DNA of 64,000 nt from contig CAWHAE010000018.1 in NCBI GenBank assembly GCA_963827235.1, positions 352,001 through 416,000 of the forward strand, read 5' to 3'. The notes beneath the pieces are model-generated. The model worked only from the letters and a program-made list of their open reading frames with translations. It did not search any database and was not told the DNA's origin. This DNA is from an uncultured bacterium. Its GTDB lineage: Bacteria; Chloroflexota; UBA5177; JANWHV01. The translations under genes were made by a program, and so were the position numbers. Every line of letters begins with the position of its first letter. Within the stretch, counting starts at the first letter, position 1. Below, one piece after another: positions 32,137 through 41,907 of the stretch.

Positions 32137-33951
32137 TCAATCCAGGGTATAGCGGCGCTCGGCGAGCCCGTAGAGCCGGCGCCAGACCATCCGGTTGACG
32201 GACACCACGACGATGGCCATGAGGACGGTGGCGGCCAGCAGCTCGGGAAAGTGCCCGGCGTTCGCTGCCTCGGCAATGCGCGCGCCTAGCCCAACGGTAC
32301 TCACCGTGCGGCTATTGAACTGCACGTATTCCGACACGATGCTGGCGTTCCAGGCGCCGCCGCTCGCCGTGATCATGCCGGTCACCAGATAGGGGAAGAT
32401 GGCGGGCAGGATCAGGGTACGCCACCGCTGGCGCCGCCCGAGCCGGTACACCGTCGAGGCCTCGCGCAGGTCGCTGGGAATGGCCATGGCGCCCGCGATC
32501 ACGTTGAAGAGGATGTACCACTGCGTGCCGAGCAGCATCAGCAGGATGGCAGGCAGCGACAGGCCGCCCGGCGCCTTGATCAGCACGATCAGCAGCACGG
32601 GGAAGAGCGCCGTGGCCGGAATGGAGGCGATGACCTGTACCACGGGCTGCAACCGCCGGGACCAGGTTGGCGACATGCCGATCGCCACGCCCACCGGCAC
32701 GGTCCAGGCCACGCCGATCGCCAGTGCGGTCAGCGTGCGCCCGAGGGTTGCCGCCGCGGCCAGGACCAGCGCGCCCCAGGTGGCCGCGTCCACCTGAACG
32801 AGGAGAGCCACGAGCTTGGCCAGACCGCCGGCTACGAGTCCGGCGGCTATTACGGCGAAAACGAGCGCCACCACTCGCCGCACCGCGCTCGCCGCCGTCG
32901 ATGCCGCCTCCGGACTGCGCTCGGCGCCCGGCAGCGGCTGCATGCGGTTGAGGAGACCGGCCAACAGCGCCCCGAGCGGGCGGAACAGACGCCGGCGCGC
33001 CAACGCCACCAGCGCGGAGCTTCGCAGCGCGTCCAGCACCGGCGAGCGCGGCGGCGCGCTGCCGCTCGACATCTCCAGCTTGAACTTGTCGGCCCACGCC
33101 ACCAGCGGGCGCCAGAACAAGAAGTCGAGCGCCACGATCAGCAGCACCAACGTCGTCAGACCGAGGACTATGGCGCCGCCATCCCCCTTGTTGGCCGCTA
33201 CCTGCAGGTACGAACCCAAACCGGGTAGCTGAAATGAGCGGCTGCCCATGGTGAATTGCTCCGAGGCCATCAGGAAGAACCAGCCGCCGGCCCAGCTCAT
33301 CATGCTGTTCCAGATCAGTCCCATCGCCGCCGAGGGAAGCTCCAGCGTGGTGAAGCGCCTCCAGGGCCGCAGGCGATAGATCGTCGCCGCCTCCTTCAGG
33401 TCCGCGGCCTCGGTGCGCGCCGAATGGTAGAAGCTGAAGGTCATGTTCCAGGCCTGGCTGGTGAAGATCAGGATCACGCTGGCAAGCTCGAGTCCGATAT
33501 TTGAGCCGGGAAAGAGGGCGACAAGTGCGAGGACCACGGCCGGAAGGAAGGAGAGGATCGGGATGCTCTGCAAGATGTCGAGCACGGGCACCATCACCAC
33601 TGCCGCGCGCCGGTTCGTCGCGGCAATGTGCCCGTACACCAGCGTGAAGGTGAGCGAGAGCAGGTAGGCGAGGATCATGCGCAGCAGGGAATATCCGGCA
33701 TAGGCCGGCAGCGCCGAAGCCGCCAGGCTGATGTGCACCGCCGGCGTGAGCCGCGCCGTCCACCGCGAGGCTGCCGCCACCAGAAGGGCGATGCCGGCGA
33801 GTACGCCGGCGGCGACCAGCAGGTCGATACCGCCAAACCGTCCCGGCGAGAGCGAGGTGGATGGCACTGCACTGTCCGGCTGCCGCCGCGGTTCCGGGCG
33901 CTGCAGCTGGGCACGCTCGCGCGCGTTCTCGGGCACGAAGACCTGGGCCAT
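32137..33951 (-). CDS. NitT/TauT-type ABC permease with two tandem membrane modules
   Basis: Motifs DILQSIPILSF, WNSMMSWAGGWFFL, LGTQWYILFNVIAG and ITASGGAWNASIVSE; AGGAG RBS. Confidence 0.9.
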   Translation of the reverse strand: MAQVFVPENARERAQLQRPEPRRQPDSAVPSTSLSPGRFGGIDLLVAAGVLAGIALLVAAASRWTARLTPAVHISLAASALPAYAGYSLLRMILAYLLSLTFTLVYGHIAATNRRAAVVMVPVLDILQSIPILSFLPAVVLALVALFPGSNIGLELASVILIFTSQAWNMTFSFYHSARTEAADLKEAATIYRLRPWRRFTTLELPSAAMGLIWNSMMSWAGGWFFLMASEQFTMGSRSFQLPGLGSYLQVAANKGDGGAIVLGLTTLVLLIVALDFLFWRPLVAWADKFKLEMSSGSAPPRSPVLDALRSSALVALARRRLFRPLGALLAGLLNRMQPLPGAERSPEAASTAASAVRRVVALVFAVIAAGLVAGGLAKLVALLVQVDAATWGALVLAAAATLGRTLTALAIGVAWTVPVGVAIGMSPTWSRRLQPVVQVIASIPATALFPVLLIVLIKAPGGLSLPAILLMLLGTQWYILFNVIAGAMAIPSDLREASTVYRLGRRQRWRTLILPAIFPYLVTGMITASGGAWNASIVSEYVQFNSRTVSTVGLGARIAEAANAGHFPELLAATVLMAIVVVSVNRMVWRRLYGLAERRYTLD

Positions 33952-34089
33952 GTAGCTCCTTGGGCGGACAAGCAGAGTGTGGCCGGTAGGTTGCGCGAGG
34001 GGGATTCCATGGAGATTGTCCAGGATCATGCCCCGCCGGGCAAGCAGTCTTGTCTCCGTGCGATCACTTGGACGCTGGCCGCGCCACAG

Positions 34090-36933: not shown

Positions 36934-37170
36934 CTACGCCTCGACCAGGCAGTTGCAGGCCGCGCACGAGAGCTTCGGGAAGTTGAAGGTCAGCGAACCT
37001 CCGCAGAACGGGCAAGGATCGGTGACCACCATCTCCTCGACTTCCCAGGGCTGATTGACATGTTGGGCATAGAGGCGCGCATACAAGGAAAGCAGTGCCT
37101 GTTCGCGTTCTTCACGTGCGGCAGTCAGTTTGCCAGGTTCGCGACCATCTTGCGATTGAGGAGCCGTCAC
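36934..37170 (-). CDS. Small protein with C-terminal CxxC..CxxC zinc ribbon
   Basis: CPFC-X11-CAAC; GAGGAG RBS before GTG; 66 nt downstream of the Nramp-related gene. Confidence 0.65.
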   Translation of the reverse strand: MTAPQSQDGREPGKLTAAREEREQALLSLYARLYAQHVNQPWEVEEMVVTDPCPFCGGSLTFNFPKLSCAACNCLVEA

Positions 37171-38904: not shown

Positions 38905-38974
38905 CGGTGTACCTTCCTACGGTGCAGGAGTCGCTGGACCGTGGTTCGGGAGGTCACCGGTGACACCAGCTACC

Positions 38975-39091
38975 TCACTTGGGCCGCGGTTCCGCGACGA
39001 GACGTGGACTGCCGGAGGCCGACTGCCATTCACCCAGCATCCCATTGGGTGGAGGCTCCGCCGGCTTGGCTGTGCCATCACTGACGCTCAT
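38975..39091 (-). CDS. Putative proline-rich leader peptide (38 aa)
   Basis: AGAGGA RBS; MSVSDGTAKPAEPPPNGMLGEWQSASGSPRLVAEPRPK*; ends 70 nt before the transporter start. Below the ORF-track cutoff and translated by hand. Confidence 0.5.
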   Translation of the reverse strand: MSVSDGTAKPAEPPPNGMLGEWQSASGSPRLVAEPRPK

Positions 39092-39126
39092 CGTGTGTCC
39101 TCTGCTTGTCTACAGGCCAGGAGCGC

Positions 39127-39366
39127 CTACGCGGCGGCCCTGGTGTGGGCGGTATGGCATTCTTCGCCATGCAATGCGCGGCCGGCATCATGCTCATCGA
39201 TCCAGCGAGCCTCGAGCCGGCACTTGCCGCACGCATCGACGACGGGAATCCATTGGGCAACCATGGCGCGCCTCTCCCTGGGCCACGATTCCCTGACGGC
39301 ACTGGATGGCTCCGGCCGATCCGGCGCGGCAGTGCGGCGGGGGACAGAGAAAACGCGAATGCTCAT
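39127..39366 (-). CDS. Small hypothetical protein (79 aa) in the M-box-controlled transcript
   Basis: Strong GGGAGGTG RBS just after the leader terminator; contains MVAQWIPVVDACGKCRLEARW. Confidence 0.55.
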   Translation of the reverse strand: MSIRVFSVPRRTAAPDRPEPSSAVRESWPRERRAMVAQWIPVVDACGKCRLEARWIDEHDAGRALHGEECHTAHTRAAA

Positions 39367-39396
39367 GGCGCACCTCCCTGGATGGACTCCCCACCC

Positions 39397-39429
39397 AAAA
39401 GAAAACCTCTCGGCTCACTCGCCGAGAGG
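39397..39429 (-). terminator. Intrinsic terminator (attenuator) inside the leader
   Basis: Minus strand CCTCTCGGC-GAGTGA-GCCGAGAGG-TTTTCTTTT. Confidence 0.85.
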
Positions 39430-39456
39430 CACGTGCGTCACCCGCCTGAACGATCC

Positions 39457-39546
39457 TCAGGCGATATGCGCGTGCGAAAGACGGCGAGCGGCCCCCATAA
39501 CGTGACTCAAGGACGCGACAAAGATACGTGGACTACCAGCGTCCAT
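39457..39546 (-). CDS. Putative leader peptide (29 aa) between the aptamer and the terminator
   Basis: GGGGGTGA RBS; MDAGSPRIFVASLSHVMGAARRLSHAHIA*; translated by hand. Confidence 0.5.
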   Translation of the reverse strand: MDAGSPRIFVASLSHVMGAARRLSHAHIA

Positions 39547-39662
39547 AGAAGGCGCTCACCCCCTCTCACCTGCGGCTACCTTGGGCGTCCAGGCCAGTCT
39601 GCACGATGGCGCACCACGGGCCGGGATCGGCAACTGTAGGCTTAAGCTAGACGGTCAACTCA

Positions 39663-39824: not shown

Positions 39825-39867
39825 ACCGAACTCCAGGTTGTGCTGCTACATCCCTGAAATCACGTGC

Positions 39868-39896
39868 ATAGTACGTCCCTTGTGCTACCCTGTCAA
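39868..39896 (-). promoter_or_regulatory. sigma70 promoter for the M-box transcript
   Basis: TTGACA-N17-TACTAT on the minus strand, about 40 nt upstream of the aptamer. Confidence 0.8.
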
Positions 39897-40013
39897 GGGC
39901 CTGGCGGGGTGTTTTTTTGCGCTTTCGCGCGCCCAAGCTGCGGCAGAGACATACGCGCAATCTCCCCTTCAACGTCTGCACGTGTCGGGGCCTCTGGCGA
40001 AGGAGTACAGACG

Positions 40014-41333
40014 GTGAGCGACGGGGCACAGGCGCAACCTCCCTCGCTCTCGGTGCGCCGGATTATCGGCCGGCCGCTCGTCGATCGGGACGGCGAACGT
40101 CTCGGTGCGGTCTGCGATGTGGTTGTCCGGCTCACCGAGAAAGAGGATCCGCTCGTCACGGGCCTCGCCGTGCGCATCGGACAGCACGCGGTGTTCGTGC
40201 CTGTGGCCGACGTCACCCCGCTCGCCACGCATGCCGTGAGGCTGACGGGGATTCGGCTGGATGTGCGCACCTTCGAGCGCCGGCCCCGCGAGATCCTGCT
40301 CGCCGGCGATCTACTCGGCCATCATGTGATCAGCATCGCGGACGCGCGCCTCGTGCGGGTGCGGGACGTCGAGCTGGCCTACCGGCAGCAGTCCCTCCGT
40401 GCGGTGGCCGTGGCCGTGGAGGGATCACCCCTCGTGGAACGGCTCCTGCACGGCAGATTTGGCGCCGAGCATGCTCGGACCGTCCTCTCTTGGGCGGGCA
40501 TTGAGCCGCTGATGGCACACGTGCCCAGCGCTCGCTGGCATCTGCCCTTTGGCCGGCTGGCACGGCTGCATCCGGCACGGCTCGCCGATCTGGTGGAGAC
40601 GGCTTCACCTGACGAAGGCGAGGAGATTATCCGCACGGTGGGCCAGAATCGGGATCTGGAAGCAGACGTGTTCGAGGAGCTGGAGCCCCCGTACCAGGTG
40701 GCATATCTCAGCACGCGTGCCGACGCCGAGATTGCCGAGGTACTCGCCACCATGGCGCCCGACGACGCGGCCGATTTGCTGCTGCAGCTCGAGCCGGAGC
40801 GACGGCAGCGCGTCCTGGGACGCTTACCGCTGGTGACCCTGCACAAGGTACGGCTGCTGCTCGGCTACAACCCTGCCACGGCCGGCGGACTGATGAGCAC
40901 GGACTACCTGGCCGTGCCCGCGGAAATGACCGTACAACAGGCACTGGACGCTGCGCGTACGAGCAGCGTACCTCCCGGCATGGCCGAGACCGTCTATGTG
41001 GTTGACCCCGAGCACCGCCTGCTTGGCGCCTTCCTGATCGCCGAGCTGCTCCGCCGTGAGCCGGACGAAGCGATTGGAAGCGCGATGCAGTCGGCACCGA
41101 TGAGCGTTCTTCCTCAGGCGGACATTCCCGAGATCGCGCTCTCTATGACGGACTTCAACCTCACGCTCTTGCCGGTATTGGACGCTGACACACGACTGAT
41201 CGGCGTAATTGCCGTGGATGACCTGCTGGAGGTGTTGCTCCCGGAGGAATGGCGCGCACTCGTGGATCACAAGCCGCCGGTAGTCCGCGAACGGACCTCC
41301 GGGAGCACAACGGGAGAAGACACGTCGAAGTGA
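40014..41333 (+). CDS. Soluble MgtE-related protein: PRC-barrel-like regions + MgtE N-domain + CBS pair, no membrane domain
   Basis: Motifs LHPARLADLVE, MAPDDAADLL, TAGGLMSTDY, VYVVD..RLLG and LIGVIAVDDLLEVL; no TM segments; AAGGAG RBS with GTG start. Confidence 0.88.
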   Translation: MSDGAQAQPPSLSVRRIIGRPLVDRDGERLGAVCDVVVRLTEKEDPLVTGLAVRIGQHAVFVPVADVTPLATHAVRLTGIRLDVRTFERRPREILLAGDLLGHHVISIADARLVRVRDVELAYRQQSLRAVAVAVEGSPLVERLLHGRFGAEHARTVLSWAGIEPLMAHVPSARWHLPFGRLARLHPARLADLVETASPDEGEEIIRTVGQNRDLEADVFEELEPPYQVAYLSTRADAEIAEVLATMAPDDAADLLLQLEPERRQRVLGRLPLVTLHKVRLLLGYNPATAGGLMSTDYLAVPAEMTVQQALDAARTSSVPPGMAETVYVVDPEHRLLGAFLIAELLRREPDEAIGSAMQSAPMSVLPQADIPEIALSMTDFNLTLLPVLDADTRLIGVIAVDDLLEVLLPEEWRALVDHKPPVVRERTSGSTTGEDTSK

Positions 41334-41415: not shown

Positions 41416-41907
41416 GTGCCGATGTTCACCCATCACCCGCACCCGTATATCGAACGTCGAAAACAGGAGAAGCCGCCGCAGACTGCGGACGAACATGTGG
41501 GCCTGAACGGCAAGATTGCTCTGGTCCTGACCACGGCGGTCGGCACCATGTGGTGCGCCTACGTGTTCGCTCTTCTCGCCCTGCTTGTAGTACCTCAGGC
41601 CGTGCACGGCGGTCTGCTCACCTTCGTACAGTGGGTGAGCCAGACCTTCATCCAGCTGGTCATGCTGAGCGTGATCATGGTCGGCCAGAACATCCTGGGC
41701 AGGGTTTCCGACAAGCGGGCGATACAGACCTACAACGACGCCGAGGCGGTGCTGCACGAAGCGCTGGAGATTCAGCGTCACCTGCACGAGCAGGACGAAC
41801 AGATCTTGCGTATCAAGCAACATCTCGGTGTCGTGGATACCGACGTGACGCTGCAGGGCCAACCCGCCGACGCAGCAACAGCGATACTTGCACAGCCTCA
41901 GCACTGA
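41416..41907 (+). CDS. DUF1003-like membrane protein
   Basis: TTAVGTMWCAYVF, VQWVSQTFIQLVMLSVIMVGQN and a coiled-coil tail; AAGGAGG RBS. Confidence 0.75.
   Translation: MPMFTHHPHPYIERRKQEKPPQTADEHVGLNGKIALVLTTAVGTMWCAYVFALLALLVVPQAVHGGLLTFVQWVSQTFIQLVMLSVIMVGQNILGRVSDKRAIQTYNDAEAVLHEALEIQRHLHEQDEQILRIKQHLGVVDTDVTLQGQPADAATAILAQPQH

Follow-up and report, generated by a model that had tools for sequence, protein, structure and literature searches.

An M-box leader with two upstream open reading frames in a Chloroflexota bacterium: a probable chance resemblance and a leader-peptide family

The 64,000-nucleotide window analysed here, a stretch of contig CAWHAE010000018.1 from an uncultured member of the Chloroflexota, carries on its minus strand a leader of about 950 nt that runs from a promoter-like site through an M-box (Mg2+) riboswitch and two short upstream open reading frames (uORF1 and uORF2) to an Nramp-type gene predicted to encode a Mg2+ transporter (Table 1). 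The two uORFs contain similar stretches, here called copy 1 and copy 2, which a sequence-only reading of the window had taken for a single peptide motif, GSPR(IF/L)VA, used twice. On balance we judge it probable that the copies are alike by coincidence and lie in two different functional leader ORFs of one Mg2+-responsive leader, because scores against shuffled sequences and random pairs are at chance, GSPR is absent from the two other uORF1s of the genus, and copy 2 falls in the poorly aligned half of its uORF. Copy 1 nonetheless appears to mark the start of a genuine conserved leader peptide, whereas copy 2 does not.

The description of the copies themselves was accurate. Copy 1 reads GGTAGTCCACGTATCTTTGTCGCG and lies in a uORF1 that begins MDAGSPRIFVA, and copy 2 reads GGCAGTCCACGTCTCGTCGCG in the uORF2 context ...SASGSPRLVAE. 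Both are in frame, both uORFs are preceded by a purine-rich Shine-Dalgarno (SD)-like tract, and the copies differ by one synonymous change, one conservative change and one whole-codon indel. A repeat search lists the pair as D1 (22 nt ungapped, 77%). In a same-strand self-alignment of the 750-nt leader, however, the top score of 18 belongs to an unrelated pair and is reached by 26 of 200 dinucleotide shuffles, while the copy pair scores about 11-12 by our own count, under the shuffle mean of 15.1 (standard deviation 2.2). With the uORF1 half of the leader aligned to the uORF2 half, the copy pair is the top match under three of four gap schemes, and the shuffles scoring at least as high as observed number 17, 54, 168 and 185 of 300 across the four. 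At the peptide level the local score of 25 (AGSPRI against SGSPRL) is matched or exceeded in 1605 of 20,000 random pairs of stop-free 29- and 38-residue translations from the same genome, and an exact 4-mer is shared in 674 of the 20,000. The 15-nt core GGNAGTCCACGTNTC is present only at the two copies in the 8-Mb genome, and a whole-genome search with the first 24 nt of uORF1 gave no further match at up to five mismatches. As a repeat the resemblance is coincidental, the copies are not a dispersed element, and the claim of one motif used twice is not upheld. An extended duplication, suggested by eye from the likeness of ATGGGATGCTGG 5' of copy 2 to ATGGACGCTGG of uORF1, was dropped; it required a 22-nt gap, and no affine-gap alignment recovered it.

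The significance of copy 1 emerges from comparison with other M-box leaders. Sampling across the phylum found M-box loci in 19 of 151, 40 of 121 and 5 of 121 genomes; two genomes counted in the second sample are unpublished, and their loci were set aside. Of the 50 loci gathered, 47 have 300 nt or more downstream and could be evaluated. In 28 of the 47, drawn from eight Chloroflexota families, an ORF that opens with ATG-GA(C/A/G) and is 21-54 codons long starts 17-227 nt past the aptamer; one candidate, L190, was dropped as spurious by judgement, and the L200 locus is truncated after MDAGPSSRR. Across the six aligned leaders, which represent four lineages, the uORF start TATGGA..TG is invariant about 100 nt past the aptamer (6/6). 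The peptides have an N-terminal core, M-D-x-G/D-S/P-S/P, with an invariant M1, D2 in 90% or more, and Ser, Pro or another small or acidic residue at positions 3-8, and beyond the first six to eight residues both length and sequence vary freely. The genes that follow the 28 uORFs also vary, encoding Nramp, ABC (ATP-binding cassette)-type permease and P-type-ATPase-like proteins. Nramp-linked members from another family read MDEGSSPRQIV, MDADSSPARS, MDDDGSPHQ, MDEGSCSTRS and MDGDGSRQS, and alongside them the window's MDAGSPRIFV reads as an ordinary member, so that copy 1 would be the diverged core of a conserved N-terminus.

Codon usage within this family bears on the nature of the constraint. 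Among the 14 members of the MDAGPS subgroup, Gly is encoded by GGC in seven and by GGT in seven, and Pro by CCG in nine, CCA in two, CCC in two and CCT in one, while GCT (Ala3) and AGT (Ser) never vary; AGT is a rare Ser codon that is nearly universal at this position of the family. Synonymous variation at Gly and Pro combined with invariant GCT and AGT suggests selection on the peptide, probably with an additional codon- or RNA-level component. The proposal that the copies are under peptide-level constraint accordingly survives for copy 1, on the strength of the N-terminal core in 28 of 47 loci and the synonymous Gly/Pro variation, and is not supported for copy 2. Residues 2-7 of the family are D, E or P at 39% of positions versus 16% in long ORFs, G, A or S at 45% versus 28%, and bulky at 10% versus 40% (19 distinct N-termini against 4333 long ORFs of this genome), figures that serve as description rather than as a test because the family members are related. 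In the window's own uORF1, D/E/P account for two of these six residues (D2 and P6).

The 19 evaluable loci that have no such ORF come mostly from one family with an Nramp-like gene straight after the aptamer, and a stricter script test found that 12 of the 28 uORF-bearing Chloroflexota loci keep a hairpin and U-run right past the aptamer. A search of a 5.8-billion-protein collection with the 28-member profile returned 141 candidates, none with E of 0.01 or below, a result that is little informative at such lengths. Searches of a literature library on M-box leader peptides and uORFs, for Chloroflexi and for Mycobacterium tuberculosis, yielded no description of the Chloroflexota peptide. As a separate observation, twelve loci of one Chloroflexota family (L190, L193-L195, L199, L201, L203-L205, L209, L211 and L213) carry an Nramp-like gene about 80-145 nt past the M-box and no MD-type uORF; in L204 and L205 the metal-site stretch of the Nramp-like protein reads ..NVDNDATG.., neither the canonical nor the NRMT form.

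A close relative of the leader is represented in RNA libraries. Contigs from three wetland metatranscriptome runs match at about 92% identity over 39844-39397, 39837-39450 and 39824-39503, and so span the aptamer, uORF1 and the terminator with a short margin at either end. None extends over uORF2 or the Nramp start, a gap that does not count as evidence against transcription there. A DNA run, X1, contains two identical pieces and could be the source sample. The relative is identical to the window over 39575-39522, which takes in the SD, the ATG and the first eight codons of uORF1, and again over 39490-39478 (region 2 of the predicted attenuator) and 39441-39397 (the terminator, in one contig). 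By hand count, codons 9-29 of uORF1 include seven residue-changing and two silent codons in the relative; codon 9 is changed from F to C, and the change at codon 10 is synonymous. These data support the placing of copy 1 in a stretch that appears constrained at the level of the peptide or of translation. A shared contig start near the predicted start site, together with the end of the longest contig about 16 nt past the U-run, gives a weak hint of a short leader RNA.

Orthologous leaders from the genus place the copies in context. The class comprises 21 genomes, four of which have an M-box; the genus accounts for five genomes, and three of these carry the locus. A blastn search of the leader against the two other carriers of the genus, G003 and G004, recovered the aptamer alone. 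Both nevertheless keep the order of promoter, M-box, uORF about 100 nt past the aptamer, long spacer, second uORF and Nramp gene, with promoter-like sites at the equivalent place. Their uORF1s read MDGDRYGRHS and MDGASCSSRL, and the GSPR(IF/L)VA unit is not kept as such. Their uORF2s read MSPNGSRQAPSEPPSPRKRG... and MRSHGNRKAPAKPPSPRTRA..., and in a codon alignment of the three genus members without indels, its register called by eye, M1, P10, P13 and P14 are invariant. The orthologues' S15-P16-R17 lies opposite P15-N16-G17 of the window, whose own GSPR occupies codons 26-29, within the C-terminal half that aligns poorly, an arrangement that points to copy 2 being lineage-specific. A metagenome scan yielded just near-duplicates, L093 of G003 and L094 of G009, and a blastn match in L007 (G002) falls within the gene of an ABC-2 permease and is spurious. 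Long TTG-initiated ORFs in frame with uORF2 were rejected; that of G003 is broken by a stop in L093, which is 99.7% identical, and this stop fixes the start of uORF2 at its ATG. We also observed that uORF1 of G003 (L002 1300-1320, minus strand) ends C-P-P-P-P-L, and that its C-rich terminal codons double as a segment whose predicted partner is either the G-rich ribosome-binding region or the 3' arm of the terminator.

The arrangement of uORF1 and the terminator behind it suggests how the first uORF could act. The terminator lies 225 nt past the aptamer, behind a translated-looking ORF, and none is found between the aptamer and uORF1. In a fold from 39580, with the ribosome-binding region present, that region pairs inside uORF1 and the terminator has a pair probability of about 1.0. 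In folds from 39546, 39520 and 39490, in which the ribosome-binding region is masked, 39490-39482 pairs instead with 39424-39416, the end of the terminator 5' arm and its loop. The antiterminator then has an advantage of 5-6.5 kcal/mol, and the terminator probability is 0.01 or lower. With the 150 nt upstream shuffled, none of 200 shuffles reproduced the switch (at least 0.9 in the full fold and at most 0.05 in the masked ones). A terminator and a mutually exclusive antiterminator, chosen by the position of the ribosome, are therefore predicted from the folds, and we infer that uORF1 and the terminator could constitute a leader-peptide attenuator.

In the mechanism we propose, a ribosome-free binding region would pair with region 2, the terminator would form and transcription would stop. 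A ribosome on the binding region, or one dwelling on the conserved rare-codon N-terminal codons, would free region 2, which would then pair into the terminator 5' arm and loop and permit read-through. The M-box presumably sets access to the ribosome-binding region of uORF1, as in the mycobacterial pe20 Mbox, and an N-terminus of D/E/P plus small residues may let the ribosome contribute a further Mg2+ input, as with mgtL. The second uORF would then govern the SD-sequestered start of the transporter gene.

The stop of uORF2 lies 70 nt from the Nramp ATG in the window and 60 and 58 nt in G003 and G004, and the single uORF of five short-leader lineages stops 61, 63, 75, 57 and 62 nt from the ATG. 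In all eight of these loci the single-sequence minimum free energy (MFE) fold pairs the Nramp SD with a CCUCC-like box that begins 6-21 nt behind the stop of the uORF, with a probability that the SD is paired of 0.79 in the window and 0.46-1.0 over the eight. RNAalifold on the eight stop-to-start spacers gave no consensus structure (energy 0.0), the alignment being too poor. The matching gap and the anti-SD pairing suggest that uORF2 and its spacer are the counterpart of the single-uORF module of these relatives, and the genus thus appears to have a split or duplicated uORF arrangement.

Several observations weigh against the account in which chance resemblance is combined with two working leader ORFs. 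The switch is only partly reproduced within the genus, for in G003, which has a terminator at the equivalent place, masking shifts its probability from 1.0 to 0.44-0.74, and behind uORF1 of G004 no terminator can be recognised. Of the 19 loci scored for pairing of the aptamer tail with the uORF, 18 do not exceed their shuffled controls, and a route from the aptamer to uORF1 was not found. Unmasking of the SD by a ribosome at the uORF stop was tried and rejected, as masking up to 13 nt past the stop leaves the Nramp SD paired in the folds. The RNA contigs cannot show transcript ends. The GC content at third codon positions (GC3) of the two uORFs, 0.57 and 0.67 versus 0.76-0.86 in genes, gives no coding signal, and the invariance of GCT and AGT could reflect a constraint on RNA or codons rather than on the peptide. 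To these we add the occurrences of S-P-R, which is somewhat enriched. In L216 the M-box-proximal uORF contains the tripeptide and, with MDEGSSPRQIV, comes close to copy 1; L217 (DSSPAR) and L219 (DGSPHQ) have near variants. In all, S-P-R is found in five of 14 Nramp-linked leader uORFs (both copies, G003, G004 and L216) versus 2.8% of random 30-residue translations.

These occurrences bear on the explanation closest to the original proposal, which is that a short peptide element, G/P-S-P-R, causing arrest or destabilising the ribosome, is present in both uORFs, with Mg2+-dependent slowing acting on attenuation at uORF1 and on SD unmasking at uORF2. Both copies are in frame with differences that are synonymous, conservative or a whole-codon indel, S-P-R is present in the uORF2s of G003 and G004 as PPSPR with the codon variants CCG/CCG/CCA and CGG/CGC/CGT, and the rare AGT codon is almost universal at the S-P-R spot. 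The S-P-R count is, however, post hoc, and without the window copies and with orthologues counted once it falls to 2 of 11 (P ~0.04 by hand arithmetic). The same-genus uORF1 orthologues have no S-P-R, copy 2 is lineage-specific, and the pairwise peptide similarity of the copies is at chance. In addition, a motif 26 residues into a peptide is unlike the N-terminal destabilising motifs, which are described as silenced by a preceding chain (10.1101/2021.02.02.429294). We consider this explanation unlikely, and it is the residual S-P-R enrichment that keeps us from placing it lower.

A historical explanation would make uORF1 and uORF2 paralogues, descended from an SD-uORF module duplicated in the ancestor of the genus, with the shared stretch a functionless remnant or a gene-conversion patch. 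The short-leader relatives (G009, G095, G305, G309 and G067) would fit such a history in that their one uORF combines a uORF1-like position and ATGGA start with a uORF2-like stop-to-ATG spacing and anti-SD, and in mycobacteria the two ribosome-binding regions past the Mbox are reported to be almost identical (PMC12810186). Peptide resemblances can also be cited, since the uORF2 N-terminus of G003, MSPNGSRQ, resembles MDGDGSRQ of G095, and MEPASEPPSS of G009 resembles APSEPPS of uORF2, but these extend to four or five residues each. Moreover, uORF1 and uORF2 have no significant DNA or peptide similarity in the window and none by eye in G003 or G004, and copy 2 lies away from the N-terminus where the family motif sits. 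A duplication that left the copies as its trace is accordingly quite improbable in our estimation.

That the copies act as RNA is less probable still, and we regard it as very doubtful. On this hypothesis AGUCCACGU would be complementary to the aptamer 3' tail ACGUGGAGU (39670-39661) and compete with helix P1, coupling Mg2+ sensing to events downstream. An inverted repeat (I13) does pair 39011-39002 with 39670-39661 at nine of ten positions, copy 1 has the same core, and at the nucleotide level the family shows no variation in its GCT and AGT codons. Yet the duplex between tail and uORF in the window reaches -25.5 kcal/mol against -24.4 +/- 3.8 for shuffles, 67 of 200 of which do as well or better, and L182 alone among the 19 scored loci beats its controls. 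The aptamer tails of G003 and G004 differ, and neither genome has a complement to its tail in uORF1. Within 1.2 kb there are 15 inverted repeats of a size expected by chance, I13 among them, and copy 1 falls mostly in unpaired loops of the folds. The suggestion of a repeated RNA pairing element is likewise not supported. Two binding sites for a protein, whether a DNA operator or the target of an RNA-binding regulator, would agree with two like-oriented copies 524 nt apart that form the sole pair in the genome, but we find this hardly credible given similarity at chance, no dyad symmetry, no conservation in orthologous leaders, a position inside the transcribed leader far from the promoter and no regulator gene evident nearby.

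Table 1. Features of the leader and of the transporter gene, in positions of the window.
Feature	Position	Strand	Basis and remarks
Sigma-70-like promoter of the leader transcript, TTGACA-17-TACTAT	39868..39896	-	10/12 consensus positions; 1 site vs 0.2 expected
M-box (Mg2+) riboswitch aptamer, RF00380	39655..39828	-	119.5 bits vs gathering score 44, E 3.8e-27
uORF1 ribosome-binding region (attenuator region 1)	39548..39572	-	MFE folds; predicted to pair with region 2 when ribosome-free
uORF1, 29 codons + stop, MDAGSPRIFVASLSHVMGAARRLSHAHIA	39457..39546	-	Member of the M-box-associated MD-x-G/D-S/P leader-peptide family
Copy 1	39514..39537	-	Codons 4-11 of uORF1; codons 4-8 within the conserved N-terminal core
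Attenuator region 2, CGCUCGCCG, inside uORF1	39482..39490	-	Partner is the ribosome-binding region or 39424-39416, from folds
Intrinsic terminator	39395..39430	-	10-bp stem 39430-39405, U-run to 39395; 39424-39416 is attenuator region 3
Spacer, ~300 nt, without a conserved gene	between terminator and uORF2	-	
uORF2, 38 codons + stop, MSVSDGTAKPAEPPPNGMLGEWQSASGSPRLVAEPRPK	38975..39091	-	By position the counterpart of the single uORF of short-leader relatives
Copy 2	38993..39013	-	Codons 27-33 of uORF2, non-conserved C-terminal half
uORF2-Nramp spacer	38905..38974	-	CCUCC anti-SD ~38953-38949; Nramp SD GGAAG 38917-38913; mutual pairing predicted
NRMT (Mg2+)-type Nramp transporter, 555 aa	37237..38904	-	PF01566, E 3.1e-72

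The leader is Mg2+-related at both ends, as the sequence-only reading had supposed. Upstream, the M-box match covers model positions 1-169 of 169 and hence the whole aptamer, the genome has no second M-box, the promoter-like site lies 40 nt upstream of the aptamer and uORF1 starts 109 nt past it. Downstream on the same strand, the Nramp gene product has as its best solved relative 7qia (E 1.2e-56, versus about 1e-11 for MntH). As described in PMC8806188, 7QIA is EleNRMT, an Nramp relative that transports Mg2+ and carries Gly in place of the Asn of helix 1 and Ala in place of the Met of helix 6. Both replacements are present in the alignment to 7qia (gdNDAGGvaty versus agNDAGGisty; GTTvAPW versus GTTiAPW), and Mg2+ transport by such a gene is reported in PMC4072509. 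By these sequence features we take the product to be an NRMT-type Mg2+ transporter, which places the M-box in the 5' leader of a predicted Mg2+ transport gene.

Other ORFs surround this locus. Between the terminator and uORF2, a 79-residue ORF (39127..39366, minus strand) was rejected and is probably not a gene: it has no Pfam match, no relative in the collected loci or its own genome and no counterpart in G003 or G004, and its GC content at second codon positions (GC2) is 0.60 versus 0.43-0.47 in genes. Divergent from the M-box promoter region, a 489-residue ORF (39864-41333, plus strand) carries PRC-barrel, MgtE_N and CBS domains and no membrane domain; the GTG start assigned to it overlaps the minus-strand promoter, and the true start probably lies further downstream. 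It is followed by a 163-residue ORF (41416-41907, plus strand) with no Pfam match, and the 489-residue ORF, perhaps together with the 163-residue one, may encode a split or soluble MgtE-like Mg2+ sensor. Directly 3' of the Nramp gene, a 78-residue ORF (36934-37170, minus strand) contains C-x-x-C ... C-x-x-C and has no Pfam match. A 630-residue permease-like ORF (32137-34029, minus strand), preceded by genes for an ABC ATPase and an ABC-2 permease, lies about 3 kb downstream of Nramp on its strand; it has the N-terminal stretches MAQ(V/I)..PE and YAGYSLLRMI in common with the gene immediately behind an M-box and MDAGPSS uORF in L172 and L173, which belong to another Chloroflexota family.

The M-box is a textbook example of a metal sensor made of RNA alone. 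Comparable uORFs with a conserved N-terminus are now seen past M-boxes in eight Chloroflexota families, before different Mg-related genes, and uORF1 of the window appears to be coupled to a terminator by an arrangement that shuffled sequences fail to recreate. A broader proposal, which we offer as speculation with a low probability of being right, is that in two phyla or more, the Chloroflexota and the Actinomycetota among them, M-boxes as a rule come together with a short leader peptide. The conserved N-terminus of that peptide, made up of acidic residues, Pro and small residues, would sense Mg2+ through the ribosome, in the manner of mgtL, and so form a second sensor in series with the RNA. 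A duplication of the module in this genus would have left uORF1 gating the terminator and uORF2 the sequestered SD, and the shared S-P-R would be the remnant of a functional core. Should the Chloroflexota findings be confirmed, M-box regulation would commonly join RNA sensing to ribosome sensing, nascent-peptide Mg2+ sensing would become testable beyond enterobacteria, and annotation would gain a family of very small ORFs that is absent from protein databases. The motif used twice, from which the study set out, would not matter.

Among known systems, the most instructive comparison is with the mycobacterial Mboxes. According to D'Halluin et al. (RNA 2026, PMC12810186), the pe20 Mbox of M. tuberculosis works by way of Rho and a translational platform and directly controls a conserved uORF, uORF2 or Rv1805A, whose N-terminus is conserved with an invariant Pro at position 7. 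The same account terms the Rv1805A-type peptide mycobacteria-specific and places a 'Mn2+-type' class of Mbox before Mn-transporter-type or Nramp-like genes (PMC12810186). Among Nramp relatives we found 11 actinobacterial loci (Mycobacterium, Nocardia and others) with an MSPSDSPYP-type uORF about 90-100 nt past the aptamer. The leader of the window is like the pe20 and rv1535 Mbox leaders, as they are described, in having, between the aptamer and a regulated gene that lies well downstream, uORFs with an SD in front of them, a uORF that is conserved at the N-terminus and variable after it, no canonical terminator directly behind the aptamer, and a proposed control that consists in access to the ribosome-binding region of the uORF. 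It differs from pe20 in its Chloroflexota host, in an N-terminal M-D-x-G/D-S/P in place of Pro at position 7, in an intrinsic terminator and predicted antiterminator after uORF1 where pe20 is reported to use Rho-dependent termination, and in a second uORF adjoining the sequestered SD of the transporter gene. In uORF1 of the window Pro stands at position 6 and in the MDAGPS group at position 5, and G003 and G004 have none in the first ten residues. L053 (Mycobacterium) reads MKPGDGPSSSP, which is reminiscent of MDAGPSSS, but such peptides are too short for homology to be demonstrated. Because position 7 is not Pro and homology is not demonstrable, we do not file uORF1 of the window in the Rv1805A family, although by analogy the Chloroflexota peptide may work as the Rv1805A-type one does. 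A further feature of the actinobacterial loci is a conserved ORF of about 50-70 residues (..TPQERAN.YVSRM..) between the M-box uORF and the Nramp-like gene in L039, L046, L048, L053, L071, L078 and others from Mycobacterium and Nocardia, which may be related to the rv1535-type genes described in PMC12810186.

A second point of reference is mgtL, the leader ORF of enterobacterial mgtA. A DE/P motif after the initiator Met of MgtL is reported to abort translation, more so at low Mg2+, and the effect is said to be favoured by small preceding residues and silenced by a longer preceding chain (10.1101/2021.02.02.429294). The window resembles mgtL, as far as that account goes, in having a short leader ORF before a predicted Mg2+ importer, a peptide family whose N-terminus is rich in acidic, Pro and small residues after Met, and a proposed role for the fate of the translating ribosome in deciding read-through. 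It departs from mgtL in that the latter belongs to Proteobacteria, has a leader that is not an M-box and is described as subject to Rho-dependent termination, and in that uORF1 of the window offers only D2 and P6. With the transcriptional OFF switch of the Bacillus subtilis ykoK/mgtE M-box the window shares an aptamer that matches the full RF00380 model, and it differs in having no terminator between the aptamer and uORF1. In the trp, his and pheA attenuators, a leader ORF is combined with the mutually exclusive helices 1:2, 2:3 and 3:4, the last being the intrinsic terminator. The window would likewise combine a leader ORF with three exclusive helices selected by ribosome position, but its region 1 consists of the ribosome-binding site and first codons, it has no run of codons for one amino acid, and a riboswitch lies upstream. 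With an M-box, a conserved leader peptide, a predicted ribosome-dependent terminator/antiterminator switch, a second uORF and an NRMT-type gene combined in one leader, the closest known counterpart would be the pe20 Mbox.

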